A stretch of DNA of 64,000 nucleotides, taken from contig CAVOHZ010000010.1 of assembly GCA_963695855.1 (NCBI GenBank), positions 1,280,001 to 1,344,000 of the forward strand, given 5' to 3'. The position numbers and the translations under genes were made by a program. Origin of the DNA: an uncultured Nitrososphaerales archaeon (GTDB lineage Archaea; Thermoproteota; Nitrososphaeria; Nitrososphaerales; Nitrososphaeraceae). Shown here piece after piece: positions 5,155-27,707 of the stretch; the first letter of the stretch is position 1; every line of letters begins with the position of its first letter. Under the pieces are notes generated by a model. The model searched no databases. It had not been told where the DNA came from and saw only the letters and a list, made by a program, of their open reading frames with translations.

Positions 5155-5181
5155 AATAAGAATATCAAAGCTAATGAAATA

Positions 5182-11386: not shown

Positions 11387-11469
11387 CACATAATTACTTA
11401 AGTTCTGTTAATTTACTATAAATTCAACTCTTCGTGCATCTCAACTATGAAATGATTTTCAAATGTTTT

Positions 11470-11680
11470 ACCACTATACATAGAAATACAGAATTGTATA
11501 CAGTTATGTATTTGAAACAATTTTCAAATAATGAATGCAAATACTGTTTCAATCCAATCACGTTGCTTACTTGTGGACATCATGTACCATAATCGGTGTA
11601 AACTGGATATTTTCCATATCTTGACACAACTGATCTAATAAATTTTCCGCAACTACATGTTGTAACTTGAGATATAGATT
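11470..11680 (-). pseudogene. IS6 transposase remnant, 3' half (split by the 15.6-kb element)
   Basis: IYIS...FIRSVVSRYGKYPVYTD matches the IS6 at 6576-6998. Confidence 0.75.
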
Positions 11681-11709
11681 TAAGTGACGAATTTGTACTT
11701 TAGATAGAT

Positions 11710-13119
11710 ATGCTGTCTGCCTTGTCTTCGTCGTCGTTAAGAACAACAGCAAGAAAGAAGCTTAAAAAGGACTCATATACGTCCAATTATACCCCTTACG
11801 ACAAGTTTTTTCACTCGATACATAGTGACTCTACGAAAATAATGTATTCTTTTTGTTTAAAAAGGTTCCTAAAGTTCTGCAAATTTACAAAATATGAACA
11901 GTTATTGCAGATTTCTAATAAAAAGAAGGAAGAAGCAATAAGGGACCATATCATGTATTTGTTACACCATGAAAAACTGTCGTATTCAAGCATTAACAAC
12001 ACCGCTGCAGCCATTAAACATTTTTACGTTCTAAATGGAGTACGTCTATTACTTTGGGACGAGTTAAAGAGTCTAAAGGGAAAAAAGAAATCTGTAATAG
12101 TAGATAGAAAATATACTCCTGAAGAACTTAAAACATTAATTGAGTATGCGGACCTGCGTGAAAAAGTAGCAATTCTTACCATGCTTTCTTCGGGGATAAG
12201 GGTTGGTGCACTTGCAGACCTGCGTATTGGTGACCTAACATACAATGAAGAATACAAACTTTACAGGATTGTAGCATACAGTCAAGATACCGCTGAATCG
12301 TATGTAACTTATTGTACCCCCGAATGTGCTAATTATATCAATCTGTATTTGGAAGATAGAAAGAAGGGTGGCGAGACTATCACACCTGATTCACCACTTA
12401 TCACACACAAGATAAATTCAAAATCTATGAACAAAGAAAGTAAGGGTTTCATGGGTTCTCAATCTATTGAAAAGTTGTTGGACCGTGAAAGACATGACGC
12501 TAAGGTAATATCTCGTACTACAATGAAGGAGCTAAAGAAGAGAGTTGCTGCAGAAGAACAGAAGGGTAAGGGTAGTGGTGGTAAGGGTAAGACTAAAGGA
12601 CAATTAATTAGGAAGGAAGTAATGCGTACGCATGGATTTAGAAAAATTTTCGATACTGCATGTGTTGATTATGGTGTTAATCCTGTAATTAAAGAAGTAT
12701 TAATGGGACATAAAACCAAGTTGGGTTTGGATACAAGTTACTACAGACCAGGAGACGAAAATCAACTAATGCAGGAATATCTCAAAGTCATTGACGCATT
12801 AACGATAGACGACACATATAGATTAAGACGTAAGACTGAAAAACTTGAGAAAGAAGTTGAAGAAATCAATCTTTTAAAACGTCAACTTATGGAACTTGAG
12901 AAAGACAAAAAAGAGTATGAAGAAAAGACTAAGAAAGAAATAGACGCATTGTGGGAACTTAATGAAAAGCGGGAAATTGATATTTATAAAGAAGCCGTAG
13001 AATTTGCAACAAAACCAATTTCTTATGAGAAATATAAAGAACGAGAAAAAAGAAAATTAGAAAGAAGAAAGATTAATTTTTTACCAGAAAATAGAAGATG
13101 GAAAAAAATAAAAAAATGA
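11710..13119 (+). CDS. tyrosine recombinase/integrase
   Basis: SSGIRVG (R), HGFR, LMGH, SYY catalytic motifs; C-terminal coiled coil. Confidence 0.95.
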   Translation: MLSALSSSSLRTTARKKLKKDSYTSNYTPYDKFFHSIHSDSTKIMYSFCLKRFLKFCKFTKYEQLLQISNKKKEEAIRDHIMYLLHHEKLSYSSINNTAAAIKHFYVLNGVRLLLWDELKSLKGKKKSVIVDRKYTPEELKTLIEYADLREKVAILTMLSSGIRVGALADLRIGDLTYNEEYKLYRIVAYSQDTAESYVTYCTPECANYINLYLEDRKKGGETITPDSPLITHKINSKSMNKESKGFMGSQSIEKLLDRERHDAKVISRTTMKELKKRVAAEEQKGKGSGGKGKTKGQLIRKEVMRTHGFRKIFDTACVDYGVNPVIKEVLMGHKTKLGLDTSYYRPGDENQLMQEYLKVIDALTIDDTYRLRRKTEKLEKEVEEINLLKRQLMELEKDKKEYEEKTKKEIDALWELNEKREIDIYKEAVEFATKPISYEKYKEREKRKLERRKINFLPENRRWKKIKK

Positions 13120-13201
13120 TTATAAACAATCATTCATTCATTCATTGTAAGAAAAAAACATAAAAAAAATTTAGTAAAATTATAAATTTAATTTAAAAAA
13201 A

Positions 13202-13570
13202 TTAAAAAGAATAGTCGTCTTCCAGGTAAGATTTTGATTCTTCTTTATTCGTACTACTAACTTTTAATATATCTGCAGGTAATTTCTCAACTTCCTGGAT
13301 TGTATTGAATCTAATACCAAATTCTATTGCAAAGATATGTTTACACCTATCTGTTCTATTACTTTCAAAGTCTTTGCAACTGCACCATTCAAAAACTGAA
13401 GGTTCATAACGTACGAAGTATTAACGTGAATCACTACTTTCAGATTCTACATAATACGTGTTTTTCTTGTTCTGAAGGTGGTAGATATTGCGGGAGAGAG
13501 CGATTGCCCTTGCTCTCCCTTCTCGTCTATTCTTTGATTTCTCAATTGTTTTAGAAACTGTTTGTTTCAT
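13202..13570 (-). pseudogene. SWIM zinc-finger protein with one internal stop
   Basis: MKQTVSK...SDSR*YFVRY...WCSCKDF...RCKHIFA; TAA at 13421-13423. Confidence 0.8.
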
Positions 13571-13687
13571 TGGTATAGTATAGTTGGTATAATTCTTATT
13601 TAAAGTATATTATTAATGATACGTATAACTTATATACCGATTAGTATAAGTGTAGTCATGGAAAATAGTATATTGGGTACTAATAGC

Positions 13688-13822
13688 ATGGTAAAGACTA
13701 TCAAAATCAGTGAAGACATACACACCAGACTTTTGAAAGTTGGTTCAATGGGAGAGACGTTTGAAGACGTTATTGAAAGGTTACTGGATTTTTATGAAAG
13801 TAAAGGGAAGTCTCAGAAATGA
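13688..13822 (+). CDS. small ribbon-helix-helix/antitoxin-like DNA-binding protein
   Basis: MVKTIKISEDIHTRL...ETFEDVIERLLD pattern. Confidence 0.8.
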   Translation: MVKTIKISEDIHTRLLKVGSMGETFEDVIERLLDFYESKGKSQK

Positions 13823-14091
13823 TAGACAATAATAATACCAGCAATAAAGACAGCAGAAGACATGGAAGGATTTATAATAAGAAAGAACTAAGGGAGAATT
13901 TTGAGGATATAGACGATATCTTACAAAACTTTGAAATGCTGTTACAGGAATTAATAGGAGAGCTGGATATAGATAAAGAAGAAATCAATACCGAAGAGGT
14001 AAGGAGCATATTGAAAGCGATGGAATATTTATGCGATGACCTTGACGACTCACCTCTTATTAATAAAATGAAACAGAATGAGTCAAAATAA
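13819..14091 (+). CDS. acidic hypothetical protein
   Basis: ATGA overlap with the upstream gene. Confidence 0.7.
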   Translation: MIDNNNTSNKDSRRHGRIYNKKELRENFEDIDDILQNFEMLLQELIGELDIDKEEINTEEVRSILKAMEYLCDDLDDSPLINKMKQNESK

Positions 14092-14566
14092 TATTTATCC
14101 AAAAACCTGTTCTTATGGGTGTGGTTTACAAATCTACTGGAATACTGCAGAGAATACATTTTTTGAAGTTTTAACACAAAAGAAGCATATTTGTCCTAAC
14201 AGCAGAAAACCTAGTACTCCAGCTAATACTACTACAGGTAATTCATATAATTATAGTAAAAAACCCTGGTTACCAAAACAGAAAATGTCTAATTCCTTTG
14301 AATTACTTTCTGGTACGATTGCAAGTGTACAGAGACAATATGAAGTTCTGTCGGATATCGTTATAGAACTTAATGGTAAGGTACATGGTTCTCAAAGGGA
14401 TAGAGATTCAAGAACCGGTATGTTAGACTTGCTGGTATATTATGAAGTACTTGAAGGTAAGAGAGACGAAGTAAAGAGAAGGTTTGAATTTATCAAAAAC
14501 AAGCCTTCTTCGTCTACTAATGCTGCTAGTACCTATATTCCAAGTGGTAGTAGTGTAGCAGCCTAA
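14078..14566 (+). CDS. hypothetical protein with Cys/His motif
   Basis: CSYGC...HIC; overlaps the upstream gene. Confidence 0.75.
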   Translation: MSQNNIYPKTCSYGCGLQIYWNTAENTFFEVLTQKKHICPNSRKPSTPANTTTGNSYNYSKKPWLPKQKMSNSFELLSGTIASVQRQYEVLSDIVIELNGKVHGSQRDRDSRTGMLDLLVYYEVLEGKRDEVKRRFEFIKNKPSSSTNAASTYIPSGSSVAA

Positions 14567-14607
14567 TGTATATATATACTTAAACTCCTAGTAGTAGTGT
14601 AATACGC

Positions 14608-15126
14608 ATGAAGGCATTATCAGACAAAGCGAAGGTTGAACAGTTAACGGATACGCTTGCTGACCTCCTTCGTCCCAGCGATGAGGAAAATAGGGCCACA
14701 GAATTAAGTTTGTGGAAGGTATGGGCTTATCATTGTTACCGTTGTAATTATCTCTGGTTTCCTAAAGATTATGATTATGGGCTTGATAATCCCATTCTAA
14801 ATATGACTCCTCCTACGTCATGTGCCAGGTGTAAATCAAAATACTGGAATAAGATTCCACAAAGAAGGACAAAGAATTATGATAATATGCTTGCACTTCC
14901 CAGAATAGTGGCATTGAGTTTGAAGTATTTTCTTGATAGGTTTGGCAGTCCTGAAGAATTCCAGAAAGTGTATAGGGAATTCATGGCACGTAATCCCTAT
15001 ATAAAAGATAACGTAGAATTTGACGAAGCGTTCAGAAAAGAATTCGATACCCCTGACAGGATAATAATATCTAGAAATGTGAGAGATATAATTGATAGTG
15101 CAGTAGAGATAAGAAGAAATAACTAA
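14608..15126 (+). CDS. zinc-ribbon protein
   Basis: CYRCNYLW...CARCKSKYW; homologue at 50742-51239. Confidence 0.75.
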   Translation: MKALSDKAKVEQLTDTLADLLRPSDEENRATELSLWKVWAYHCYRCNYLWFPKDYDYGLDNPILNMTPPTSCARCKSKYWNKIPQRRTKNYDNMLALPRIVALSLKYFLDRFGSPEEFQKVYREFMARNPYIKDNVEFDEAFRKEFDTPDRIIISRNVRDIIDSAVEIRRNN

Positions 15127-15746
15127 CTAAAAATTTTTATCCTAATCCTTTCTTATTTTCATTGTTATTATTGTGTTGGGAACCAGAAAACTAAACAGTC
15201 TTCATAAAGTGGACCAGGTTAGAGTTATCCAGTTAAATGAACAGATATATCAGAGATAGAGAAATCATTTTAATGAGTTTCACTGTGGACCCGAAGATTT
15301 ATGCAATAATAAAGTTACTACGTATGAGGATATAATTATCAAGATATTAGACTTTTACGAAGAAAGGAATCAAGTCTTATTAGTTACCAAAAAAGTTCTC
15401 TATTCTTGAACACTTAAATACTAACACTTAAATAACTGTGATGGTATATTATAGTTAACACCGAAATCTCTATAATGTATTTTTGCGGCACTAACCTTAT
15501 TAAATCTAATGCAGAGAGAAAAAAAGAAGTATATGACATAACCTATGGAGAATCTTCACGCCCATTTGGTGGATAAATTTCAAGAACAAAATAATTAAGT
15601 GTTATAACAGTAGTAAATAAATAAAAAATAAGATTATAATATATAACCTTTGTAGTTTTTATTGTCTGGTTTCTCTAATGTAGGAACCTTGACGATACTA
15701 TCAGAAAACTACTAGATTTTTATGATAGTAAGGAGAAATCACAGAA

Positions 15747-16259
15747 ATGACTACTAGCGACGACGACAATAATAACAATAACGATGAAGAAGGTAAGGTA
15801 ATTCTGGATGAAGAAGGTCTGGTAATTCTGGATGAAGAAGGTCAGGTAATAATTCTGGACCCTAAGCGTAATAAGGTAATTGAATTTGTATTCGAACAGG
15901 GCGGTAAGGAAGGTAGTAGAAGAATATACATTGATGAAAAATGTCGTTGGTATTGTATAGCGGCTTCTCTGAAAGATGCGAAAGAAGGTAGGGGTAAATT
16001 CTATAAATATACTGATTTGGGCAGAAAATTATTGTTGGAAGTTTTCGCTGAATTAGATAAAACAGGTCATTTTAATGATAAAGCGATCTATAAATATACT
16101 GATTTGGGCAGAAAATTATTGTTGGAAGTTTTCGCTGAATTAGATAAAACAGGTCATTTTAATGATAAAGCGATAGAAGAAGATTACTTCTCTGATATTG
16201 TGGTTAGAAAGTGTATTGATATGATCAAAATCAAAAATGACCTATCAGATCTTAAATAA
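15747..16259 (+). CDS. hypothetical protein with internal tandem duplications
   Basis: DEEGxVIL x3; exact 87-bp duplication 16001-16087/16088-16174. Confidence 0.7.
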   Translation: MTTSDDDNNNNNDEEGKVILDEEGLVILDEEGQVIILDPKRNKVIEFVFEQGGKEGSRRIYIDEKCRWYCIAASLKDAKEGRGKFYKYTDLGRKLLLEVFAELDKTGHFNDKAIYKYTDLGRKLLLEVFAELDKTGHFNDKAIEEDYFSDIVVRKCIDMIKIKNDLSDLK

Positions 16260-16384
16260 AATTTCAATTTTATTAAATATTTAATATTTTTTTATATGCA
16301 ATATAATTTTTTAAATATACTTTTATTCTAATCTTCTTTTATTTTCTTTGTATAGGTGGTAGTGGTCCGTAACGTGGTGGCTGA

Positions 16385-16555
16385 TTGGGTAGAGTTGTAG
16401 CGGAAACAAAAGAAGGGAAATTAATTCAGATAGAAAATGAGACTTTTGAAAGAATGAAGGGAAACAGTGTACAATATGGGAAAGTAGAATCTGTTGACGA
16501 GATAATGAATAGACTACTGGATTTTTATGACAGTAAGGGAAAATCACAGAAATGA
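16385..16555 (+). CDS. RHH/antitoxin-like paralogue
   Basis: ETFERMK...VESVDEIMNRLLDFYDSKGKSQK. Confidence 0.65.
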   Translation: MGRVVAETKEGKLIQIENETFERMKGNSVQYGKVESVDEIMNRLLDFYDSKGKSQK

Positions 16556-16644
16556 CGTTTGGAGTGATTGAGCAATGGGTTATAGTAATTGCTCTTATTA
16601 CTGCAGCAGTTTGCTATATATCGGCAAGTAAAATGTGGGATTGA
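16552..16644 (+). CDS. 30-aa single-TM peptide
   Basis: MTFGVIEQWVIVIALITAAVCYISASKMWD; ATGA overlap with the upstream gene. Confidence 0.5.
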   Translation: MTFGVIEQWVIVIALITAAVCYISASKMWD

Positions 16645-16744
16645 TCAAACGGCAAGAACAAAACTGAACGCAATAAAGAATAAAATCTAAAAATTACAAG
16701 ATTTGCAAAATCTTATATCATAGGTTTTTAATCTATAAGTCGAA

Positions 16745-16903
16745 ATGTCAGTAGGAAAGTCATATAGATTTGAGGAAATCAAGTTATTTTGTTCGGATTG
16801 TAAGGGAGATAATGATCTAACTGGAGAACTTACAATCTATAAGGGAGATTTAGTTTGTAAACAATGCTTAGAGAGTAGAAAGGAACCCCAATCAACCTTC
16901 TAA
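16745..16903 (+). CDS. small zinc-finger protein
   Basis: CSDC...CKQC, 52 aa. Confidence 0.6.
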   Translation: MSVGKSYRFEEIKLFCSDCKGDNDLTGELTIYKGDLVCKQCLESRKEPQSTF

Positions 16904-16960
16904 AAATTTTTATCCTAATTTTCTTTATAAATAAAAGTACTGGCTAGAAGATATGCAGGG

Positions 16961-17149
16961 TTGGGTGTAAGTACAAGGTTACGTGTTGTAAGTACTAATG
17001 GTAAGAGTAGCAGTAAGAAGAAGGTTGTTATGAAGATATCAGAGAAGACTTTTGAAAGGTTGAAAGAGAATAGTTTTCAGTATGGTGAAGTGGAATCTTA
17101 TGACGAGATTCTTATCAGACTATTAGATTTTTATGAACAAAGAAAATAA
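16961..17149 (+). CDS. RHH/antitoxin-like paralogue
   Basis: MKISEKTFERLK...ESYDEILIRLLDFYE. Confidence 0.75.
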   Translation: MGVSTRLRVVSTNGKSSSKKKVVMKISEKTFERLKENSFQYGEVESYDEILIRLLDFYEQRK

Positions 17150-17178
17150 ATAAAAAAGGAGGTTGCTCCTTTGACATG

Positions 17179-18077
17179 CTAATTTCCGACAGGGAAAGAC
17201 TCTCCATTTATTTTAAGGACCGAGGAGGTTGAGATAGAAGATGCGTCCAACTCTTGGATTGTAATTGAATTTGTTGCTGTACAGGTCTGTGTTTGTCCCG
17301 CCGCTATTGTTCCCGTTGTTATGAAAGCACTGATGACTTCATCACAATCTCCTGTATATGATACAATAAGAATGGCTTGGCGGGGTGGATCGTCATGAGA
17401 TTGTATCCAAGCAATGACTTCGGTGATGTACTGCCCGAAATCTTCTATTACTTGATAATCACCTGGATTCAACGTTACGACTGTTCCACTAGTAGAACCG
17501 GGAAATTCAGAAGATGGATTTGGATTGTTACCATTCACTTGGAAAGGAAAATCACTTTCATCTACCGTTGATAGTAGGTCTTCACAATCACCTTCAATTT
17601 CGTCTGTACAGTCAATTTGTTTAGCAACCGTCAAAGTCGTTGGTGGTGGTAATTGTACCTGTTCGTTGTCATTCACATTTACACATATATTTACAAGATT
17701 CCTGTCGAAGTTTATTTTATCGAGTCCGTTACCATTTTGTGCGTTTGCTGCGTCTGGACCTGCTGTTCCTTCGTTCGCTGCTGCAGTAGCAGTAGTGTCT
17801 TCAGGTATTTGGGTAATATCTATTCCATTGACATTTATGTTACTGTTTACACAGGATATTTTCTGATATCTCCATGAGAACTCTTTTTTTGATGGTTATC
17901 ATAACTATATCTATTGCCGTCTTGGTAATAGTTGCTATCATATCCGTAATGATTGTCGTACATTTGTGCACCTGCGTTTGTAATTGTTGAAAGGTTTAGA
18001 GCCAGTATACTTGTCGCTAGTATTGCTCTCAGTATAGAAGCAAAAACTATAATTCTGTTGTTATTATTATTGCTCAA
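17179..18077 (-). pseudogene. secreted surface protein, frameshifted
   Basis: Signal-peptide ORF 17847-18077 continues after a frameshift near 17860 into SCVNSNINVNGIDI...LTVAKQIDC...CTATN. Confidence 0.7.
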
Positions 18078-18316
18078 TACATTGTTAAATACGAATTTAA
18101 TATATCCTAGGTTGGAAGGAACATTATCTAATCTTGTAATATTTCAAGATTCTGAATGATTGACAAGAAGAAGAATAGAAAATGATGTTAAGGTAGAAAG
18201 TTAAAACTCCTAGATAGAAAATCATACGAGAACGACAAGTAATATGGGTCGAGTAACAATTAGACTAATTAAATTTCGTTAAAAAAAAGAAATAGATGAT
18301 GGTTGGAGTAGGTGTT

Positions 18317-19108
18317 TTACACTGGAGGGAAAGTACCTACAGTCCTTAGACAATCAACAATCGCATCTATATCTGCCTGTTCTATACTAGCAATACTATC
18401 AAGTTCCGATCTAAGGGCTTGTTCATTTTTGAATTGGTCAAGTATTGCACAATATCCGTCAAGATTCCGTGTTGGAAATCCTGCTAAGAACGTTGCTAGA
18501 TCCGCTTCTTCTTGGTCGTCTAAGATACTTGTAAAGCATTCTTGACATGTTTCTGGGGGTGGTGGGAATAGTACTGGTAATAATGCTTTTTCGAAACAGT
18601 CAAAGAGACCTCTTACAACTCTATCGATATTTGTATTTGTTTGTAATAGTACAGCATCTTCTATTATTTTCAATGCATCTACAGGAGTTACTGTCTCAGT
18701 TACAAGAAAATCAAGAGCAAGTTCTAGGTTTTTACAAATATCAAATAGTTGTGCGGTATTATACTCAGCGTCAGGTGATCCGGTCGTTAAACATGTTGCT
18801 CCCGAAACTGTTGGTTCGGTATCATCTACACAATTAATACTATCAAAATTAACAAAATTTATTGCATTAATCAATGCATTAAGAAGGGTACCTGTTTGTG
18901 CAGCATTCAAGAAATGTAACCAATACTTTACACATTCTTCACATATTATTTGTTCATCCGTTAACTCAGGTGGAAGTACTGTCGGGGGATCTGCTGAAGC
19001 TTGATTAGTGGATACCTGCATTGCCGATATCGGCTTTGACATGTTCATAGTGGTTGCCAAAAAAAGCATAACTACTAGAGAGAGACCTAAGATATTTGAT
19101 TTGTGCAT
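18317..19108 (-). CDS. secreted Cys-rich acidic protein
   Basis: Signal peptide; CEEC and CQEC modules. Confidence 0.75.
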   Translation of the reverse strand: MHKSNILGLSLVVMLFLATTMNMSKPISAMQVSTNQASADPPTVLPPELTDEQIICEECVKYWLHFLNAAQTGTLLNALINAINFVNFDSINCVDDTEPTVSGATCLTTGSPDAEYNTAQLFDICKNLELALDFLVTETVTPVDALKIIEDAVLLQTNTNIDRVVRGLFDCFEKALLPVLFPPPPETCQECFTSILDDQEEADLATFLAGFPTRNLDGYCAILDQFKNEQALRSELDSIASIEQADIDAIVDCLRTVGTFPPV

Positions 19109-19885
19109 TGTTCTTTTACTATTTTATATATATATTAATCTAAGGACACATTTTTCTCTAAATTTATGACAAAAATTATTTTGAGTCAGTTACTTTAAAA
19201 TAATCAAGAATATAATATAATAGAAATCTTATAAAAAGATTAAAGTTTAGATATTTCTAGTATTTTCATTAATTAATTTATAGCTGTTATTATTACAGAT
19301 ATCTTTTTCATCATCTTGATAGTTAGTCTTATCCTTAAAACTATCTATTTGTTTCTTTGATTTGAGATAATATATTAATTAAGTTCTGATAATAAAAAAT
19401 AAACATATGGTAATAGCATATGTATAGTAGATTCTTATTTCAACACAGCTATCCATTATTGGTATTAGTCTTATATATTAATTATAAAATTGTTGCAATT
19501 GTTTCAAGGTAAGATTAGTGAATAAAAATTTCCACGTTCGCCTGATCTAAAGTAATAATAAAAAGTAGGAAAATTTGGCCGTTTTACTTAATTACATATA
19601 AATTAATTATAAATATGAATTTCTATCCCATAGAAAGAAATTTGAATATACCTTTAATTCCCTGAAAATCAACGGTTATGAAGAGTGCATCTAGGAGAAC
19701 CACAAACGATTATAGTGTCTCTATTAAGGACGTGAATCATCATAGTCATTCTTTTTATACTCATAAATAAATAATATCATTGTGGCTTTTTTACACAAAA
19801 AGAGTGAAAATTATAAAGAATAAAAAATAGTAGATATAATTAGTTCAAAATAGCAATTATAAAAAATAGCACCAAACATATTTTA

Positions 19886-21334
19886 TTATTCACTGGTGAC
19901 GAATTTAACTCCTTTCAACAGCAAACGAAGTGCGTCCAAGTCATCGTTGTGGACACTCACATTTTTGTCAAGGTTCCATTCATTAGCGTAGGCAGTCTTT
20001 AGCGACAGGATTAATCTATCGAATCTGAAAGGTATAGCGAGTTTCTGTTTTGTTAAAAGTTGATATGTATGTTCCAGCATTTGTTTATGTTCTTTTGCAA
20101 AGGATACAGGTATCACAATGTTGAATTCAGGACTCACGTTCTCAGAGCGGTCCCAGTCTAAACTCTCACCGAATTTGGATTTACATTCATTAACTGCAGC
20201 CCGATTACTTCCATCCACAAACCACCATAGATTAGGGATTTCAGTATGGAGTTGAAATATACGATCACCGATTACAGAAGGAGTTGTTTTGTCATGTTGC
20301 TCACCCAGGACGATTTTAACTATTTCATTTTCTGTATCTAATTCTGCAATGTATATAGTTGTAATGGATGTAGAGAAGCCGAAATCGATCCCGCCAATAT
20401 GGAGACAGTAATTATTTAATGGTAAATCCTTGTATTTTTCCCCTAGTTGTACTGCCCTCTCTATGTCTTCAATTGCAAAAACGTTCCCAATTTTTCCTAA
20501 ATATTTTAAATCATATTCTCTATCAAATGAAGGACTTTGCTTTGCTCTCTCTATATCTTCAATAGTATAGATTTTATTCAAGCCATAACGGTAGTCAAGT
20601 TTGATTCTCTTGTATAGACAAATATCTTCAGGTTCCTGTTCTATAGTCTGCATTAATCCCCCAGGTGCATTAGGTGTTGAAACCATAACGATAAAGGGAT
20701 TTGATTTACCAATGTATCTCTCTGCTACCGCTCTTACATCCTCCTGTTCTCCCTTTCTAAAGAAGTCGCATTCGTCCAGGTAGATAAATTTAGGGTTATC
20801 CAATGAACGAAATGAATCGATATGGTTCGAGGGATACGCTTCTATCCTGCACTTCTTTAACTCTAATACAGTTTCTTTAGTATCAAATGTAATATTATGA
20901 AATTTATTCATAAACATATTCTTCATACGTTTTACAAGTTTGATTGCTAAATCTATGTTTGGACCTGTAACTATAACCATTTGTGAATCCTGATAGGTAT
21001 TATCTCGTAATGCAAGATAACACATGTATCTTAAGAATAATTCACTAATTCCTAAACCAGTACTTTTGAGAATCCATAGACACTTATCATATTCTAAACT
21101 ATCTAAAACAATTTTCTCATAATCGAATAATGGTTTTTCAATATTATCTTTTCTTGGAAGTGATAGGATATGATTAAAACAGCAATTACCACTTGTTAAA
21201 ATGTCTTCGTTTCTATGTTCTGTAATATCCCATATCCAGAATGGTTTACCCTTGAATACCTGGAATTCAGAATATTGTGTTTGTTGGTTCTGTTGTCCCT
21301 GGCCTATTAGTTTCTGTAAATCCTTCCAACCCAT
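19886..21334 (-). CDS. terL: terminase large subunit
   Basis: Walker A-like KSTGLGIS, Walker B IYLDE, VSTP coupling motif, RNase H-like GIDFG and DDLDA. Confidence 0.88.
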   Translation of the reverse strand: MGWKDLQKLIGQGQQNQQTQYSEFQVFKGKPFWIWDITEHRNEDILTSGNCCFNHILSLPRKDNIEKPLFDYEKIVLDSLEYDKCLWILKSTGLGISELFLRYMCYLALRDNTYQDSQMVIVTGPNIDLAIKLVKRMKNMFMNKFHNITFDTKETVLELKKCRIEAYPSNHIDSFRSLDNPKFIYLDECDFFRKGEQEDVRAVAERYIGKSNPFIVMVSTPNAPGGLMQTIEQEPEDICLYKRIKLDYRYGLNKIYTIEDIERAKQSPSFDREYDLKYLGKIGNVFAIEDIERAVQLGEKYKDLPLNNYCLHIGGIDFGFSTSITTIYIAELDTENEIVKIVLGEQHDKTTPSVIGDRIFQLHTEIPNLWWFVDGSNRAAVNECKSKFGESLDWDRSENVSPEFNIVIPVSFAKEHKQMLEHTYQLLTKQKLAIPFRFDRLILSLKTAYANEWNLDKNVSVHNDDLDALRLLLKGVKFVTSE

Positions 21335-21758
21335 TGCTATTCCCTTTAGATAATATTCTTTCCTTTGTTGATTCTACAAATCTTATTGAATCCTGCAGTA
21401 AACCGGCATTAGTTAATAATTCCATTTTAGTAGAATAACATTCTTTAATCAATGCTAATGATTGTAACTTGATTTTTATGTCACCTTCTTTTTCTGCCTT
21501 TTCTGATATTATCCATAATTGTTTATTAATTTCCTGTAATCCCTTCAAACAATTTTGATACTCATAAGGTAACGTTTTCTGTATATGGTTCTTTATGGTT
21601 TCTTCTGCTTCTATCTTCAACTGTGCAACGTCCCTGGATACTGCAGACTTGTCAATAGATAACATGCTTGCAATTTCAGACTGACAAAATCCCTTAATCA
21701 TTAATTCGTCAATTTTGTTTCTACGCCATTCTAACTGTTGTTTCCTAGAAGTTGTCAT
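21267..21758 (-). CDS. putative terminase small subunit (HTH)
   Basis: N-terminal HTH QSEIASMLSIDKSAVSRD plus helical region, overlapping the terL start. Confidence 0.7.
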   Translation of the reverse strand: MTTSRKQQLEWRRNKIDELMIKGFCQSEIASMLSIDKSAVSRDVAQLKIEAEETIKNHIQKTLPYEYQNCLKGLQEINKQLWIISEKAEKEGDIKIKLQSLALIKECYSTKMELLTNAGLLQDSIRFVESTKERILSKGNSNGLEGFTETNRPGTTEPTNTIF

Positions 21759-21879
21759 TCTTAGATTTTCCTTTTCAATAATTATATGGTTTCATTACTT
21801 TTGTCTTTTTCTACTCTGGGAATCATGGGATTATTGTTAGATTTATAGATTTCTAGGAAAAAAATATTGAAAATCAATA

Positions 21880-21998
21880 TCCTAAAAAGATAAGATATTA
21901 ACAAGTTAATAGGTTACAAGGCTTCTTCTGGGGACCTATACGAAAAATATCTTCCAGACTTTGAAAAGATGTTAAAATCGTTCAAGTGGATAGATTGA
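21880..21998 (+). pseudogene. PsbP-like protein C-terminal remnant
   Basis: YEKYLPDFEKMLKSFKWID. Confidence 0.4.
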
Positions 21999-22235
21999 AA
22001 ATAATTAAAATGATTTTGAATTAAAATAAAAAAATAAAAAAATAAAAGCAAGAAATAACAGGTAAATAAAAATATCTAGAGAATTGAGTTTTGGACCAAG
22101 TTTATTTATTTTAAAGATTTACAAATGAATTATTGATAGAATATTTCATTATGAATATATATCATGTTATTACGATAGGAAAGAGATTGAGAAGAGTTAA
22201 TACGTGCCTCTTTCATTGGTATATTTTCTTTTGCT

Positions 22236-22877
22236 ATGATCTTTTCCTCTATTATGACATATACAGATGAACAAAAGGCATACGGACAATCTAGTAATTT
22301 TACTAAATTTACTTCAAAGGATTTAGAGACAGCAAAGGAGGCAGCAAAACAGGCAAAATTAAGAGAATTTATCTTGGAAATTCAAGGTGTTAGCACAAGT
22401 AATCCACAGGTTACACAATTCCAAATTTCTGGAGATGGTAACAAAATCTGTAGATCTGGCAATTGTAAATATGAATTTGGCACAATAAATATATCATTGC
22501 CAACTGTCGAAAATACTGGTCTTACTCTACGAATAGATTTTCAGTTATATGATCAACAATCACAAAAATGGGAACTATATAGCATGACCAGTCTTTCCGG
22601 TATAAATGAGACAGATATAAGTAATCTAATTTACACATTTAATGAACCTCTAGGATCTCTCAGGTTGCACCCTGCAGAAAGTGAAAATCCAATCGATCAA
22701 TCTCTTGATGAAGATGGATGGTTTAATTGGTGGAATGAAAATACTTGGTATTATGATACAGGACCTGTAGAGTATAGATCAGGTGAAGATCGCTTAATAA
22801 TGACCGGCACTTTCAATGGTCACGACGTCCCGACGTATGATAGTGATGATATACAGGTGATTAAATTATTTGATTAA
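22236..22877 (+). CDS. putative exported hypothetical protein
   Basis: 213-aa ORF; hydrophobic in-frame sequence upstream suggests an earlier start. Confidence 0.65.
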   Translation: MIFSSIMTYTDEQKAYGQSSNFTKFTSKDLETAKEAAKQAKLREFILEIQGVSTSNPQVTQFQISGDGNKICRSGNCKYEFGTINISLPTVENTGLTLRIDFQLYDQQSQKWELYSMTSLSGINETDISNLIYTFNEPLGSLRLHPAESENPIDQSLDEDGWFNWWNENTWYYDTGPVEYRSGEDRLIMTGTFNGHDVPTYDSDDIQVIKLFD

Positions 22878-23035
22878 CTAATTCGTTTTTTAGAAAATAG
22901 AATTTTGTTATAATGTATAGCCCTTATAATTTTTATTGTCTTTATCTAGTCTGGGAATATCGACAGGATTATCATTAGTCAGACCTATGTCTTCCATTTC
23001 TTATGATATCTTTGATTGGAATTGTTGGATAAGTT

Positions 23036-24172
23036 TCAATCGTTGCCATTAATTGAAACCCCTATTCCTTTAATGACTAGCAAAGAGTACAAATTACTAT
23101 GATTGGTTTTTATCTTCTGTCTACTCATTGGACCGTACTCTTTGTTTTGTGCGTTTCTCAGTGCTTGATTAATTCTCTTATCGATATACCACCAACCGCC
23201 TAACTTCCTTAATGACTCACATTTCTGCAACCACTCTTTAATAATCTGTCTAACTTCGTTATCCGTTAACCCTTTTATCTTGACAAGATAAGGAACTAGA
23301 ATCAACTCAACAATTTCTTTTCTGCAGTCGTCAACCGGTGTTTCTAATAATCTCTCTATCCAGTTGTAATAATTATGGAAATTATTTCCAAAATTATTAT
23401 TATGATTTTTTCGTTTCCACTTTTCTAATTCCTTTATTTGTTTTTCCTGTTCTAACTCAAAGTCTATCTTCTTTTGTATCAGATATTCGTGAAACATGGT
23501 AAACAGTTCTTTTGTAATTGTAGGACGGTATCCGTTCCATTCCTGTATAATTTTCACTGTAACGTTATTTTTGGAATTAATAGAACCTGGAATCCTTAGA
23601 AGACATGATCTAAAAGACGGATTGTGGGACTTGTCTGCTTTATTGTCCGATAATAAAATTTTTGCAAATCTTAAAAATTCTTCTGCAGGATTACCATTTA
23701 CAATTAGTCTAGAATCTGCAAATTCCCTAAATCTCTGATTTATCAAATAGTCATTTACAGGACAGTTTACAGGTTGTATTACGTGATAACCATTACCGGA
23801 CCATAGGACGGTAGGTTTTGTGTTTTTACCAAAATATTTCGAAATATTTCTTAGTATGTGAGCTTTCGCAATATCTAACTCATTCTTTCTAGATTTGAAG
23901 TCCGATAAATCCAAGTCAATGAAAAACAAATCTGGAATCCAGGATTTACCGTCTCTCAATAATGGAAATGCGTTAATTCTACAATCTATGAACTTGGAAT
24001 CTAAAAATGCTATTATTATCTCGTCCATATTGTCAACTTGGAAAGTTCTGTTACTGGATTCGTATGTTGAGATTTTACGTGGAAATACAGGTTTTGAAAG
24101 GTGATTTAAAATAAAGTCTAAATCTTGGGATTCAGATAATTCCTTTCTTGAAATGGTTTCTAGGGTTGTCAT
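23036..24172 (-). CDS. archaeo-eukaryotic primase (primase-polymerase) with PriX-like C-terminus
   Basis: FIDLD, SGNGYH, LLRIPGSINSK; C-terminal WIERLL..P..D.RK. Confidence 0.88.
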   Translation of the reverse strand: MTTLETISRKELSESQDLDFILNHLSKPVFPRKISTYESSNRTFQVDNMDEIIIAFLDSKFIDCRINAFPLLRDGKSWIPDLFFIDLDLSDFKSRKNELDIAKAHILRNISKYFGKNTKPTVLWSGNGYHVIQPVNCPVNDYLINQRFREFADSRLIVNGNPAEEFLRFAKILLSDNKADKSHNPSFRSCLLRIPGSINSKNNVTVKIIQEWNGYRPTITKELFTMFHEYLIQKKIDFELEQEKQIKELEKWKRKNHNNNFGNNFHNYYNWIERLLETPVDDCRKEIVELILVPYLVKIKGLTDNEVRQIIKEWLQKCESLRKLGGWWYIDKRINQALRNAQNKEYGPMSRQKIKTNHSNLYSLLVIKGIGVSINGND

Positions 24173-26193
24173 TCCCAGGGATTTCCTTTGAACTCTACTC
24201 GTTCACCATTTTGCTTCATGGTATTGATTAACGACTTGCTTGGTTGTGCTGGTTTTTTTGCATGAAAATTCAAACAGTGTTTTAGGTGTTCTTTTTCTGT
24301 CGAAAATTCATTATCGCAATAATTGCATTTGTATTGTTGGGGGAAGGTATGTAAAGTATCGTCAATATCGTCCAATCGTCCAGAGTCCTCATTTTGAGCG
24401 TGATTTTGACTGTTTTCTTTGGACGATACTTTGGACGATATATTTTCACTATTTTTAATATCGTCCATTTTTTCACCCTGATTTTGAGCGTGATTTTCCG
24501 TTTTTTGACGGTTTGACGATATTGACGGTATTATACATACTATTTCTATTACCCTTTTTCCTTTATTGTCCTTCTTTCCAATTTCAATCAGAAATCCGCG
24601 TTCTCTAAGATTTGTCTTTGCTTCATTTAATCTGCGTGTGAGTACGTTGGGTGCTTTGGGAAATGAAGTGACTTTGGAAATATTTATTTTTAAATCTCGT
24701 ACTGCAATGTCTTCAAGTCGTGTTAATAATTCGCTTGAAGTACCACTCCATTTTTCTTTATATTCTACTATGTTACCGTCTTCATCTTGTTTATCAATCA
24801 TAAATATGATAAGTGCTTGGGATACCGCACTTTCTGCAATTGCTTCCTCAATCTGGACGTTGATATTATCTTGGTAGACTCTGAGAAACTCACCTTCTTT
24901 ATTACCCAAACACTGTGAAATTATCTCTCCATATTCTTCAAAATCCGCCATTCGGTTAAGTCCCTTTTCAATCGTAATTCCCCCATTTTGTTTAACCTGG
25001 AGAACCTTCACCAGAATATTGAAAAGATATCCCAGTAGTTTGGGTCTCATGGCTTCAAATTCGTTCCAGATATCTTCTTGTTTTCTTCTATTTTCTTTGG
25101 GAATTCTTTCTAGTTTTATAATAATACTTCTATCTAATAGGTCGGGTTTTGTTGCTCCTATGTTGATACCGTTAATACCCACGCATCTTTTAAAGGAATA
25201 GATTATGTCGTCATCATCTGTATACAATTGTCTCTTTGAGAATCCACTACCGGTTACAGCCCTGCATAATGCGTCAGAAACCCAATCATTTATTTTTGAA
25301 ACATTATCAAAATATGCGATATAGTTGTGGGATAGTTTCTGAATAAGTTCGTTGATATCTCTAGGAAATGTTAGGGTTTTGACGCTACTAGGGTCTATTA
25401 ACATTCTTATCAGCTCCTGAAATGTAGATTTTGCACTCCCTTGTTCTCCGTATAGTAGATTGACTGGTTTAGAAATGTCGGGAATTAATAACGAAACAAT
25501 CTTTACCTTTACCAATAATTTTGTGTCCTCGTCCGCTATGTTCAGAAGACTAATAAATTTGTCTAGAAGTGGTTCGTCGTATTCCTCTGTCGGTAAAATA
25601 GGAGTAACCTGGGGTAATTGACTGCTAAAATGTCTAAACAGAATGGGAGGAGTTTTTTCTATTGTCCAACCTTGCGGAGTTATCTTTATTACGCTTCCAT
25701 CGTTATTTACCAAGTCATAATAGAACGTATACTTATCTTCGTCCGTCCTTGCTACTCTTAATTCCAGTCTTTTGATAATACCATTAAATTCTGCCTTTGA
25801 TTGCACATAGTCTATGATATTATTTTTTTCCTTTTCCTTGAGTACAATTTTATACTCACTGTCGTAAAATAATTTGAATATGTATCTTTCAAATTTGTGA
25901 CTTGTTAAAGATATTGGTTCGTAATGTCCATCCTTTATTTTCACACATCCAAATAGTTTACCGTACTGGTCTTTGAACAGTAACTTAATGTGAGTATCCG
26001 CATAAGCAAAAAGGATTTCTGTATTATTCTCTCCTTCGTCTTCTTCTTCTTCGTCTTCTTCTTCGTATTCTGCTGCTGATTGCGATTTTCCGTTTTGTTT
26101 GTTGTATTCTTTTAAAATTTCTAACTGGTTATCGTTAAGAAGTCTTCTGCATTGCAGCTTCGATTCATTATCATTTATCCCGTACTCGTTCAT
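24169..26193 (-). CDS. SF3-like replicative helicase/ATPase with C-terminal C2H2 finger
   Basis: GEQGSAKST, YFDN, INGIN motifs; CNYC...H...H. Confidence 0.85.
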   Translation of the reverse strand: MNEYGINDNESKLQCRRLLNDNQLEILKEYNKQNGKSQSAAEYEEEDEEEEDEGENNTEILFAYADTHIKLLFKDQYGKLFGCVKIKDGHYEPISLTSHKFERYIFKLFYDSEYKIVLKEKEKNNIIDYVQSKAEFNGIIKRLELRVARTDEDKYTFYYDLVNNDGSVIKITPQGWTIEKTPPILFRHFSSQLPQVTPILPTEEYDEPLLDKFISLLNIADEDTKLLVKVKIVSLLIPDISKPVNLLYGEQGSAKSTFQELIRMLIDPSSVKTLTFPRDINELIQKLSHNYIAYFDNVSKINDWVSDALCRAVTGSGFSKRQLYTDDDDIIYSFKRCVGINGINIGATKPDLLDRSIIIKLERIPKENRRKQEDIWNEFEAMRPKLLGYLFNILVKVLQVKQNGGITIEKGLNRMADFEEYGEIISQCLGNKEGEFLRVYQDNINVQIEEAIAESAVSQALIIFMIDKQDEDGNIVEYKEKWSGTSSELLTRLEDIAVRDLKINISKVTSFPKAPNVLTRRLNEAKTNLRERGFLIEIGKKDNKGKRVIEIVCIIPSISSNRQKTENHAQNQGEKMDDIKNSENISSKVSSKENSQNHAQNEDSGRLDDIDDTLHTFPQQYKCNYCDNEFSTEKEHLKHCLNFHAKKPAQPSKSLINTMKQNGERVEFKGNPWE
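24357..24530. repeat. iteron-like cluster (candidate replication origin)
   Basis: Multiple ATCGTC/GACGAT hexamers in both orientations plus 17-bp ATTTTGAGCGTGATTTT at 24391 and 24481. Confidence 0.55.
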
Positions 26194-26416
26194 TTGTTCC
26201 CAGAATAGTATAAAATTCTTAGTCCAGTTTTTGCGGTTTAATGTCCAATTAATAGGACCATTTACCTTATGATTTGGGAAACTTCTATTATGTCCGTAAT
26301 TCTGTTAAATGTTGCACGTTCAAACAATCCAGTCTTTTTCAAATCGTCGTTTATTACAAAATTGAAAATTTCTACATTTTCGTTTTCATTATTATTTGCT
26401 TCTGTATTAGACATTT

Positions 26417-26716
26417 CTAAAACTCTCCCATATTGTAGATTTTTACCAATTCTTCAATCAAATCGCCTTTGAGGTAAACTTGCCCCTTTCTAGGACCAAA
26501 TTCTTCACTTTGTTTTGTTTCTTCATTGTGTTGCGGTGAGTAAATCGAGTTCTCATCTACAATATTGCAAATTTCATATTTTGAGTCTAGAATTTTAACT
26601 AATTCACAAACAGGACATTTACAAGTATCACATGTGAAACTTTTTATTCGATTTTTAGGTTTGGACAAGGTTATACAACTCTCCCGTATGCTACAAGTGG
26701 AGATACAAAAGAACAA
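26417..26716 (-). CDS. small Cys-rich protein
   Basis: CDTCKCPVC motif; start uncertain. Confidence 0.5.
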   Translation of the reverse strand: MFFCISTCSIRESCITLSKPKNRIKSFTCDTCKCPVCELVKILDSKYEICNIVDENSIYSPQHNEETKQSEEFGPRKGQVYLKGDLIEELVKIYNMGEF

Positions 26717-26951
26717 GATTTCCCAATGCCTAGGAGAGCGGTAGGAGAGAAAATTCTGAAATTTTTGAACTTTCTTCCTTTAGTAGTACAAAAGCTATTT
26801 ATCTGTGAAATGTTATAATTCATTTCAAGAGACACGCCAGTGTTGTAATGTTGAGGTTAAGACCCTCAAGGAAGAAGAACTCTCGTCGCTGCTAATAACC
26901 GCTGTTGTGTGGACTGCGCGTAGGCCTGGAATCCTAGCAGTCCATGCGAAA

Positions 26952-27155
26952 CTATGTAACGTGATTTTTAACCTCCTTCTCGACTAAATCAAAAAGTTTA
27001 CCAAGGGCGTCGTCGTACGTATCCCCGATATTTCCCAACCTTCGCAATTTTTTCTTATGTTTCATTGAAATGACAATATGCGTCATCTCGTCATCTTCTT
27101 CTTCTAATTCTCTTCTGCCAACCTGGTGGTCGACAGTTAAAAGACTTGCAATCAT
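26952..27155 (-). CDS. RHH/antitoxin-like regulator
   Basis: THIVISMKHKKKLRRLG..GDTYDDALGKL. Confidence 0.7.
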   Translation of the reverse strand: MIASLLTVDHQVGRRELEEEDDEMTHIVISMKHKKKLRRLGNIGDTYDDALGKLFDLVEKEVKNHVT

Positions 27156-27283
27156 TTAATTGAATTAAATTAATTACCGCATTATAAGTTGTTCTTTTTC
27201 TTAGAATTCTTCAGCAACATATTGGATTTTACGCACGAATCATTAAATCAACCGTATACCTAAAGGACAGGCTTTACTGTTTA

Positions 27284-27505
27284 ATATAGATTCCAAGGAC
27301 AGAACTGTGTATTGGTTCAATACAGAACCATAACCCGAAATGCAGGCTAGCGATTTGAATATCCATTTCATGTGTAATAAAAATAGATACTCTTTTTCTT
27401 TTATAGATCTGACATGATCCAAATCTTTGCATCCAATATGACAGACACGTAACCCATTTCTAATGCTTGTATTACTAATGCCATGGAAATATTTCTTAAG
27501 CTCAA
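27284..27505 (-). pseudogene. IS6 transposase remnant, 5' half
   Basis: WMQRFGSCQIYKRKRVSIF...LWFCIEPIHSSVLGIYI. Confidence 0.8.
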
Positions 27506-27510
27506 CCAAT

Positions 27511-27707
27511 TTGTTACTATTGATGGCATTGCAGATTTAATTGGTAGAGCCAAAAGAAGTTTTCAAATGGGCTAAAATTATTGCGGCAAGGTATATGGAT
27601 AATGATAAAGCAGAAGAGTATGGCAGGAGAAATAGTTCAGAAGGTGAACTATTAATAAAAATAACACCACCAGAGTTATTGGTGAAAAAGATATAGCAGT
27701 ATGGTAA
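27511..27707 (+). pseudogene. 3' fragment copy of the PPOX/F420-dependent oxidoreductase gene
   Basis: High nucleotide similarity to 36482-36681 and its downstream flank. Confidence 0.85.

Follow-up and report, generated by a model that had tools for sequence, protein, structure and literature searches.

How does a mobile element that carries a virus-type DNA-packaging enzyme, but no capsid gene, come to reside in the chromosome of a soil ammonia-oxidising archaeon? We addressed this question for a 15.6-kb element in an uncultured Nitrososphaerales archaeon (assembly GCA_963695855.1, contig CAVOHZ010000010.1). The analysed stretch, hereafter the window, is 64,000 nucleotides long, and all positions below refer to it unless stated otherwise. 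The original prediction held that positions 11681-27283 form a bounded, terminase-encoding element without capsid genes, and read it as a satellite of a tailed archaeal virus similar to phage-inducible chromosomal islands (PICIs). The observation itself is confirmed, whereas the interpretation is supported in part.

We first asked whether the element is truly bounded. By blastn, the flanks 11515-11680 and 27284-27509 are the two halves of one copy of a repeated sequence that is contiguous elsewhere in the genome (e.g. C3:255495-255810 and C8:188421-188749, where C denotes our contig numbering), and about 45 matches to other copies start at 27283-27290. Intact copies encode a 218-aa transposase of the DDE_Tnp_IS240 family (PF13610, 2.4e-9), identifying the target as a multi-copy IS6-type insertion sequence. 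The 9-mer ATATAGATT flanks the element on both sides; it occurs once at the matching place in 2 of the 6 intact copies inspected, while the other 4 carry variants of it. The inserted segment is therefore 11681-27283 (15,603 bp), exactly as originally predicted. No longer att repeat was found, and the window contains no tRNA and no Rfam match. Because the ends are proven by the split insertion sequence, end-truncation of a provirus is excluded. The features of the locus are as follows.

11515-11680, minus strand: left half of the interrupted IS6-type (DDE_Tnp_IS240) copy, the integration target
11672-11680: left copy of the 9-bp direct repeat ATATAGATT (att core or target duplication)
11710-13119, plus strand: putative tyrosine integrase, 469 aa, starting 30 bp inside the left end
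13616-13822, plus strand: ribbon-helix-helix (RHH)/VapB-like small regulator (DUF7557), with paralogues at about 16400-16537 and 16961-17149
13819-15126, plus strand: three small ORFs of unknown function (90, 162 and 172 aa), of which the 162-aa one recurs in sister elements
15747-16259, plus strand: 170-aa ORF of unknown function with a perfect 87-nt tandem duplication (16000-16173), shared at 83-99 % identity with four other loci
16961-17149, plus strand: second RHH (DUF7557-like) small protein
17179-18077, minus strand: broken secreted-protein cargo gene, with the signal-peptide part (17847-18077) and the body (17179-17676) in different frames
18317-19108, minus strand: 263-aa Cys-rich protein with an N-terminal signal peptide (cargo)
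19886-21334, minus strand: large terminase subunit (TerL), 482 aa, with predicted ATPase and RNase-H-like nuclease domains
21267-21758, minus strand: TerS-like HTH protein, 163 aa, overlapping the TerL start
22236-22877, plus strand: 213-aa ORF of unknown function, unique to this copy
23036-24172, minus strand: primase, 378 aa, with an N-terminal AEP-like part and a C-terminal PriX domain
24169-26193, minus strand: P-loop replicative helicase, 674 aa, with a C-terminal C2H2 zinc finger
26417-27155, minus strand: two small ORFs (99 and 67 aa), the 67-aa one resembling the RHH proteins by eye
27284-27292: right copy of the 9-bp direct repeat ATATAGATT
27284-27509, minus strand: right half of the interrupted IS6-type copy

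The central question is whether the presumed terminase is genuine. By profile it matches phrog_2 at 7.5e-24 over residues 65-468, although Pfam gives only a weak DEAD hit and sequence searches of NCBIfam and PDB found nothing. An AlphaFold model (pLDDT 87.7) was compared with known structures using Foldseek, giving 64 matches at E <= 0.001, among them T4 gp17 (3.8e-16), HK97 TerL (2.9e-12), and the D6E and Sf6 enzymes over their full length; isolated ATPase and nuclease domains were matched as well. Furthermore, residues that we assign by eye to the Walker-type, coupling and nuclease motifs are conserved: K90, G93, G95, D187, E188, T220, D317 and D374 are invariant in 19 homologous sequences, and D464 and D467 are present in at least 90 % of them. 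TerL is also under purifying selection, with dN/dS of 0.05-0.17 in the 7 of 12 pairs for which dS was not saturated. The enzyme is a true large terminase by profile and fold. The assignment of its neighbour is weaker. The TerS-like protein shows only weak HTH hits (HTH_38, 0.015; phrog_9628, 1.2e-4), and the assignment rests on its position and on a family found upstream of TerL in 12 loci. Thus, what the original prediction called a complete packaging motor is really TerL plus an unverified TerS-like HTH protein.

The integrase matches phrog_1 (1.5e-12, residues 32-429), while its matches to PF00589 (1.9e-5; 24.9 bits against a cut-off of 27.1) and to XerA NF040815 (2e-15; 57 bits against 220) both fall below cut-off; candidate R, H-x-x-R and Y residues are visible by eye. 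The primase carries PriX (PF18689, 3.3e-12; NF033412, 1e-18; PriX chains of PDB 4wyh/5of3, 2e-7), and its AEP motifs were read by eye. For the helicase only a weak P-loop match was obtained (AAA_5, 0.016), with no match in PDB, PHROGs or NCBIfam. It nevertheless has 3131 homologues, and its family is often fused to PrimPol (PF09250); sister elements carry D5_N+DUF5906 or MCM instead. The two RHH proteins were recognised through PF24434 (1.6e-7 for the first, which also matches PF02697 at 8.9e-6, and 5.9e-5 for the second).

Are capsid genes absent, or merely unrecognised? None of the 20 ORFs scanned matched a head, portal, protease or tail family in Pfam (20 of 20 scanned) or PHROGs (12 of 20 scanned). 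In the whole genome, which is 99.87 % complete, there was no hit to PF05065, PF04860, PF05133 or phrog_267, to the other proteins (portal, capsid, tail and unassigned ORFs) of a related full provirus, or to six further structural or portal-position proteins of three related viruses. It should be noted that structural proteins of archaeal viruses diverge fast, and that single-protein and Pfam searches can miss them. Eight ORFs of 90-263 aa have no family match, which raises the possibility of a small autonomous virus with novel capsid proteins hidden among them. We consider this very unlikely. A TerL motor needs a portal-bearing HK97-type capsid, and no ORF here is long enough for a portal: only four exceed 270 aa (integrase, TerL, primase and helicase), all of them assigned. 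The unassigned ORFs, moreover, are not conserved across the family, and the largest carries a signal peptide.

We next asked whether the capsid-less layout is peculiar to this copy. The element is one of 12 TerL loci in its genome, 9 of them truncated or interrupted and 3 full-length, each in an int/primase context and none with structural genes. The TerL family occurs in 116 of 201 Nitrososphaeraceae genomes and in 18 of 18 genera, whereas the major capsid protein of the provirus type occurs in 6 of 201, its portal in 7 of 201 (one genus only), and the second portal type linked to this TerL in 3 of 201. Of 18 loci from other Nitrososphaeraceae genomes, 17 lack any homologue of the structural proteins tested; 7 have an integrase within 10 kb. 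In addition, the order helicase-primase-TerS-TerL-Zn ribbon-230 aa-recombinase-like appears in soil-metagenome contigs. The contigs examined show no large unassigned ORFs, although they were not compared with the structural proteins, and 0 of 8 were circular.

Relatives carry two further conserved genes next to TerL, encoding a Zn-ribbon protein and a 230-aa protein. Both are missing here. Neither looks like a capsid or portal as far as could be tested, and no fold match was obtained for the 230-aa protein. The present copy has intact int, TerL, TerS-like, primase and helicase genes, but the lack of these two genes and the broken cargo gene (its intact 359-aa paralogue lies at 4313-5392 of locus L036) suggest that it may be a reduced or partly disabled member.

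How the terminase module was acquired bears on an alternative, namely that the element is the relic of a head-tailed provirus that lost its morphogenesis module and retains terminase genes without function, as was proposed for the element NitKor-E1 (PMC6563490). TerL homologues sit in full viruses and in one full provirus of the same family. TerLs of complete viruses (55,024 bp with terminal repeats, and 59,656 bp) nest within the element clade, in a 15-row clade with support 100, and in those viruses TerL-Zn ribbon is followed by a portal. A viral origin of the terminase module is therefore clear, and repeated loss from viruses cannot be fully excluded; such a nesting is also what repeated virus-to-relic decay would give. 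The 9 broken TerL loci in this genome are likewise expected of decaying relics, and this copy lacks two family-conserved genes and has a broken cargo gene. On the other hand, the element is bounded with no remnant of portal, capsid or tail genes detected, the same short layout with intact genes recurs across genera and in metagenomes, and TerL is under selection. Furthermore, 0 of 5 such virus records hold a tyrosine integrase or the elements' helicase, the helicase family was not found in IMG/VR, and the 230-aa gene is found only in elements (0 of 80 IMG/VR loci). The backbone is therefore not a deleted version of those viruses, and we regard the relic reading as unlikely, though it remains a serious rival.

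A second alternative is an integrative plasmid-like element that uses the terminase for something other than its own encapsidation, for example to interfere with an infecting virus's packaging by competing for portals or cutting viral concatemers, or to process its own replication concatemers. The backbone is indeed plasmid-like (int plus a PrimPol-family helicase), and relatives carry defence-type genes (GmrSD+HEPN, NurA/HerA, type I R subunit, patatin) next to, or between, TerS and TerL. Bacterial satellites may carry such cargo as well. Neither the 230-aa marker nor the helicase was found in IMG/VR, so nothing places these elements in virus particles. Against this reading, the ATPase and nuclease motifs and the whole two-domain fold of a packaging motor are conserved, and the viral gene order TerS-TerL-Zn ribbon is retained. 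A non-packaging role for a TerS/TerL pair appears to be without precedent, and terminase had not been seen in non-viral mobile genetic elements (PMC6563490). We consider this alternative about as doubtful as the relic; were it correct, use of a terminase against viruses would be a new defence principle.

Taken together, we tentatively favour a satellite-like, helper-dependent lifestyle, which is the best reading but is not shown. In this view, a tyrosine integrase inserted the element into an IS6-type copy, and the element belongs to a widespread Nitrososphaeraceae family of small (about 8-16 kb) chimeric elements. These combine a non-viral backbone (integrase, AEP primase, helicase or MCM/D5-type replicase, small RHH regulators, variable cargo) with a packaging module taken from tailed archaeal viruses (a TerS-like protein and TerL), and none encodes capsid, portal, protease or tail genes. 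The most likely mechanism, which is inferred, is that the element rests integrated until a tailed virus of the 55-60-kb kind with a related TerL infects, whereupon it excises and replicates with its own primase-helicase; its TerS-like protein would pick out element DNA, and its TerL would dock on the helper's portal and fill helper-made capsids. No helper was identified, and, without read data, no excised circle, empty site in a population or encapsidated copy was seen. It is possible, though less likely than not, that these elements are the first satellites of head-tailed archaeal viruses, spread through over half of the Nitrososphaeraceae genomes sampled, which bring a terminase of their own (TerS+TerL) and hijack the portals and capsids of 55-60-kb, probably virulent, viruses whose TerLs are their closest kin.

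Ammonia-oxidising archaea of soil drive nitrification, yet their viruses are known almost only from metagenomes. Such an element family would give a concrete system for testing virus-satellite conflict in archaea, and would point to a likely route for moving cargo and defence genes among nitrifiers. It would also show that automated pipelines accepting a terminase as a viral hallmark, a criterion used in PMC13573593, may count many such elements as proviruses.

Among known systems, NitKor-E1 of a marine ammonia-oxidising archaeon (PMC6563490) is likewise an integrated element with a tyrosine integrase and adjacent TerS and TerL but no other tailed-virus gene, and its terminase was called 'enigmatic', which a family of this kind would explain. 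That paper reports a single case, read as a probable relic. Here, the layout is a family, with its own primase-helicase module and a selected TerL. Bacterial PICIs, PICMIs and cf-PICIs (cited in 10.1101/2025.02.15.638363) appear to share the size of 10-16 kb, the layout of int, regulators, primase/replicase and packaging gene, the lack of tail genes and the presence of cargo and defence genes, with dependence on a helper capsid as the proposed logic. The present host is an archaeon, however, the primase is of the AEP/PriX type, and no PICI-type family was hit in searches that included no dedicated PICI profiles. PICIs seem to carry TerS or cos sites but not TerL, and cf-PICIs to carry TerL together with capsid and portal; TerS+TerL without any capsid gene would match neither. 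Small integrative elements with replication modules and satellite-like features also occur in marine cyanobacteria. The archaeal elements pSSVx/pSSVi and SRCE join a plasmid-derived replication module to an incomplete viral morphogenesis or packaging module, but they parasitise spindle-shaped viruses and carry an AAA+ ATPase and/or capsid protein, not a terminase; only pSSVi and pSSVx had previously been described as archaeal satellites (10.1101/2025.02.15.638363). Finally, the head-tailed proviruses and viruses of Nitrososphaeraceae (locus L086 in genome G104, and the IMG/VR records behind loci L107, L108, L110 and L113) have a homologous TerL (38-47 % identity), and the L107/L108/L110 viruses share the Zn-ribbon gene that follows TerL in the element's relatives. 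These are 35-60 kb and carry a portal, a major capsid protein and tail genes, whereas no such gene was found in the element, which has an integrase and a helicase that the viruses lack.

The DNA analyzed has a G+C content of about 31 % and comes from contig C10 of a 3.55-Mb, 99.87 %-complete genome, whose relatives carry Nitrososphaeraceae record titles. Between an aldehyde dehydrogenase gene and an RTX-repeat protein gene lies the gene set of the original prediction, which had named an integrase, an SF3 helicase, an AEP primase, TerS-like and TerL genes, small regulators and secreted-protein cargo. The positions of the features discussed are as follows.

9986-11386, aldehyde dehydrogenase gene (PF00171, 1e-144)
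11515-11680, first part of the interrupted IS6-type insertion-sequence copy
11672-11680, 9-mer ATATAGATT, first copy
11681-27283, inserted element (15,603 bp)
13761-13823, 15689-15751 and 16494-16556, three copies of a 63-nt repeat
16000-16173, perfect 87-nt tandem duplication inside the 170-aa ORF
17641-18213, ~550-bp segment repeated in the genome
27284-27292, 9-mer ATATAGATT, second copy
27284-27509, second part of the interrupted insertion-sequence copy
28185-28485, short ORFs just upstream of the RTX-type gene that look like fragments of another copy
28533-29258, RTX-type calcium-binding repeat protein (PF00353, 2e-17), with 20 tblastn matches in the genome

Within the element, the 469-aa integrase was assigned through phrog_1 (1.5e-12), although the Pfam and NCBIfam recombinase hits fall below their cut-offs. 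There are two to four paralogous RHH/VapB-like small proteins (DUF7557, 1.6e-7), several unassigned small ORFs, two secreted-protein cargo genes, a 482-aa TerL (phrog_2, 7.5e-24), a 163-aa HTH protein overlapping the TerL start, a 378-aa primase with a PriX domain (PF18689 3.3e-12; NF033412 1e-18; PDB PriX chains about 2e-7) and a 674-aa P-loop protein. This last protein, the helicase, has no curated family, and PDB sequence searches with the protein and its profile returned nothing useful. It does, however, have 3131 homologues at E <= 1e-5 among 8000 candidates scored, and 37 of the 120 listed are fused to an N-terminal PrimPol domain (PF09250), which fits a plasmid-type primase-helicase replicase. 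The SF3 class given in the original prediction remains an inference.

Several repeats accompany these genes. Each copy of the 63-nt repeat is the 3' end of an RHH-type small gene running into the start codon of the next gene, suggesting a series of RHH-plus-partner gene pairs that are possibly toxin-antitoxin-like. The unit duplicated inside the 170-aa ORF occurs in four other copies of this gene at 98-99 % identity; one copy, at C8:215381-217738, is 93.6 % identical over 2.3 kb but lies outside any TerL element. The ~550-bp segment is repeated about 30 times in the genome at 67-87 % identity and covers the signal-peptide and low-complexity start of a secreted-protein gene family (224-359 aa paralogues), several of which ride on sister elements.

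The ends of the element are real. A blastn search of positions 11000-28000 against the genome showed that 11515-11680 and 27284-27509 each match dozens of other loci, and at several of these the two matches abut, overlapping by about 9 bp (e.g. C3:255495-255665 with 255657-255810; C8:188421-188587 with 188579-188749). The intact copies encode a 218-aa DDE_Tnp_IS240 (IS6-type) transposase. This insertion sequence is present in dozens of copies in this genome and in other genomes of the genus, and about 45 blastn matches start at 27283-27290. The copy hit by the element (11395-11680 and 27284-27509) seems itself truncated on its left side, next to the aldehyde dehydrogenase stop. At the junctions, the 9-mer ATATAGATT is present on both sides; it is present once at the matching place in 2 of the 6 intact copies inspected, whereas the other 4 carry variants of it. 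So 15,603 bp were inserted as a unit into an IS copy, with the integrase start lying 30 bp inside the left end.

A 9-bp repeat fits either a short recombinase core or a target duplication. No tRNA or Rfam family is involved, no att repeat longer than 14 nt was found between the two flanks, and a search for att repeats of three sister elements gave nothing above chance. The reverse complement of the 9-mer lies about 40 nt upstream of the integrase start of a sister element whose integrase is 60 % identical (C10:473590-473662), but this may be chance, since the 9-mer occurs 5 times in the 64-kb window. In three genomes of the same genus the aldehyde dehydrogenase gene is conserved, but there it lies within 2-5 kb of genes that match window positions 40.6-41.7 kb, 42.7-43.9 kb or 63.0-63.6 kb, and no direct empty site was available. 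The roughly 29 kb after the gene (11400-40650) may be a larger island or a rearranged hotspot of which the element is one part.

TerL is a real large terminase. Although Pfam, NCBIfam and PDB sequence searches, including one with the TerL profile, fail to identify it, an AlphaFold model built on 19 homologues has a pLDDT of 87.7, and its best PDB matches are the T4 gp17 (3.8e-16), HK97, D6E and Sf6 large terminases over the full length, plus isolated terminase ATPase and nuclease domains, with 64 matches at E <= 0.001. The alignment keeps invariant a K-x-x-G-x-G Walker-A-like loop, the DE of Walker B, an S-T-P coupling motif and the nuclease acidic residues, where the motif names are our reading. 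In addition, an N-terminal block at residues 31-54 of the window protein (P-F-W ... H ... C-C-F-N-H), ahead of the ATPase domain, is invariant or nearly so in all 19 TerLs, and is possibly a metal-binding or portal- or TerS-contact element special to this lineage. Where synonymous divergence was not saturated (7 of 12 pairs), dN/dS between TerLs from cellular genomes was 0.05-0.17.

No structural genes were found. Only four ORFs in the element exceed 270 aa, and all four are assigned; among the ORFs scanned, no Pfam or PHROG head, portal, protease or tail family is hit. The whole genome gives no hit to PF05065, PF04860, PF05133 or phrog_267. When it was searched by phmmer with all proteins of a related full provirus, only the TerL of that provirus matched, and a phmmer search with six further structural or portal-position proteins of three related viruses was likewise negative. 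All phrog_2 hits in the genome belong to this one TerL family. A virus with unrecognized capsid genes is a reading to which we give very little weight.

The element is one of a family. The genome holds 12 TerL loci, of which three are full-length (this one, and those at C10:1.4955 Mb and C10:1.526 Mb), one lacks 40 N-terminal residues, and eight are frameshifted, truncated, interrupted or fused. One sister copy (C10:478547-481033), for example, has an 828-aa open frame in which the first 350 residues of TerL are fused to an unrelated C-terminal part ending in the helicase-type zinc finger, which looks like a deletion fusion. Eight of the 12 loci cluster in two stretches of C10 of about 50 kb each (1.475-1.532 Mb and 1.756-1.804 Mb), and two elements lie back to back at 1.475-1.501 Mb, so there are integration hotspots or tandem arrays. 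The intact sister elements have the same logic: one reads int - RHH - cargo - TerL - primase - helicase (about 12.5 kb), and the other helicase - primase - TerS-position ORF - TerL - Zn ribbon - 230 aa - cargo - int (about 10 kb). Other copies carry MCM, a ParB-methyltransferase or a topoisomerase-like gene, and never structural genes. The high copy numbers led us to consider whether TerS-TerL is itself a transposon-like unit; this idea was dropped, as the copies sit in int/replicase elements and no terminal repeats were seen.

Across 201 Nitrososphaeraceae genomes, the TerL of the element is far commoner than the capsid and portal proteins searched, and it often occurs in many copies per genome.

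Table. Matches to TerL and to structural proteins in 201 Nitrososphaeraceae genomes (query; genomes with a match; genera).
TerL of the element; 116 (111 of 196 without five unpublished genomes); 18 of 18
Major capsid protein of the related full provirus (locus L086, genome G104); 6; 1
Portal-position protein of that provirus; 7; 1
Second portal type (L107 viruses); 3 (weak matches); 3

The L086 capsid protein matches phrog_267 at 6.7e-8. Among 18 loci around TerLs from other genomes, retrieved with up to 10 kb of flank, only L086 contains homologues of the structural proteins. Seven have a homologous integrase, nine a homologous TerS-like gene (10 ORFs) and seven the 230-aa gene. Large neighbours are host genes or defence-type genes; in L083, L085 and L092 (loci from other Nitrososphaeraceae genomes), defence-type or signalling genes sit beside or between TerS and TerL, including GmrSD+HEPN, NurA/HerA-like proteins, a type I restriction R subunit, a patatin-like phospholipase (between TerS and TerL) and a histidine kinase. 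Furthermore, eight of the longest of 38 soil-metagenome contigs found with the 230-aa marker repeat the order helicase - primase - TerS - TerL - Zn ribbon - 230 aa. Five of the eight then have a ~500-aa protein with a recombinase-like box, a motif read by eye only; a PDB sequence search with the 503-aa recombinase-like protein gave nothing useful. Neither these eight contigs nor the contigs L017 and L020 show the terminal overlap expected of circles.

How do these elements relate to real viruses? A search of IMG/VR with the single TerL protein returned no close relatives, but a profile scan with the alignment found 148 TerL relatives, of which 80 were kept. In the TerL tree (64 sequences, quick IQ-TREE), three viral TerLs (L107, L108 and L110) lie inside a 15-sequence clade with support 100, which also holds the window's TerL and eleven other TerLs from cellular genomes. 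The record behind L107 is 55,024 bp with direct terminal repeats and 100 % complete by CheckV, that behind L108 is 59,656 bp and 100 % complete, and that behind L110 is 40,810 bp and 69 % complete. In these viruses TerL is followed by a homologue of the elements' Zn-ribbon gene and then by a ~517-aa protein. PHROG and Pfam searches with this portal-position protein gave no direct hit; the portal call rests on its homology (1.7e-17) to a 598-aa protein of the locus L109, which itself hits Phage_portal (PF04860) at 3.4e-8, below the Pfam cut-off.

None of five such virus records holds a tyrosine integrase (PF00589) or the elements' helicase, and neither the helicase family nor the 230-aa marker was found in IMG/VR by pattern scans. 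The elements are therefore chimeras of a non-viral integrase-replicase backbone and a viral TerS-TerL(-Zn ribbon) module and, on these searches, not internally deleted copies of the nearest viruses. The many decayed copies and the nesting of virus TerLs favour a functionless provirus relic, but the bounded size, the conserved short layout, the foreign backbone and the low dN/dS oppose it, and we regard this reading as unlikely. A plasmid-like element that uses the terminase for interference or for concatemer processing is, in our view, about as doubtful.

This copy differs from most relatives, including the sister element whose TerL is 64-67 % identical, in that the Zn-ribbon ('fam160') and 230-aa ('fam230') genes that follow TerL have no trace in the window. 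Their place is taken by the secreted-protein cargo, one gene of which is broken. The model of the 230-aa protein (pLDDT 69.5) matches nothing in PDB or BFVD (0 hits at E <= 0.001 in either), and a PDB sequence search with its profile was equally uninformative. Nothing marks it as a capsid or portal protein, but the test is weak.

Taken together, the best-supported reading is a satellite-like integrative element, which would depend on capsids and portals of a co-infecting tailed virus while bringing its own DNA-recognition and translocation enzymes. We hold this reading only tentatively, at somewhat less than even odds. The unit and its ends, the gene identities (except TerS and the helicase class, and with recombinase profile hits of the integrase below cut-off), the lack of structural genes in the element and its genome by the searches made, the recurrence and selection of the layout, and the kinship of the terminase with that of complete viruses lacking the backbone are established by the data, whereas excision by the integrase, replication by the primase-helicase, helper dependence and packaging are inferred without direct evidence of excision or expression. 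By arithmetic alone, with nothing observed, a 55-60-kb headful would hold about 3.5-3.8 element copies.

In the literature consulted (PMC6563490, PMC11705971, 10.1101/2025.02.15.638363, PMC11849493 and PMC13573593), we found no description of a capsid-less terminase family in Nitrososphaeraceae, nor of a satellite of a tailed archaeal virus, although the element tables of PMC6563490 and the provirus lists of PMC11849493 may already contain members of this family. One such element, NitKor-E1, has been described, and its terminase was called enigmatic and probably a relic (PMC6563490). As for archaeal satellites, only pSSVi and pSSVx had previously been described as such, and the candidates added there are for spindle-shaped viruses only (10.1101/2025.02.15.638363). 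Against this background, we regard the present element as a variation on what is known, namely a cryptic integrated element, or phage-satellite logic, in archaea, with a TerS-like protein plus TerL and no capsid gene.
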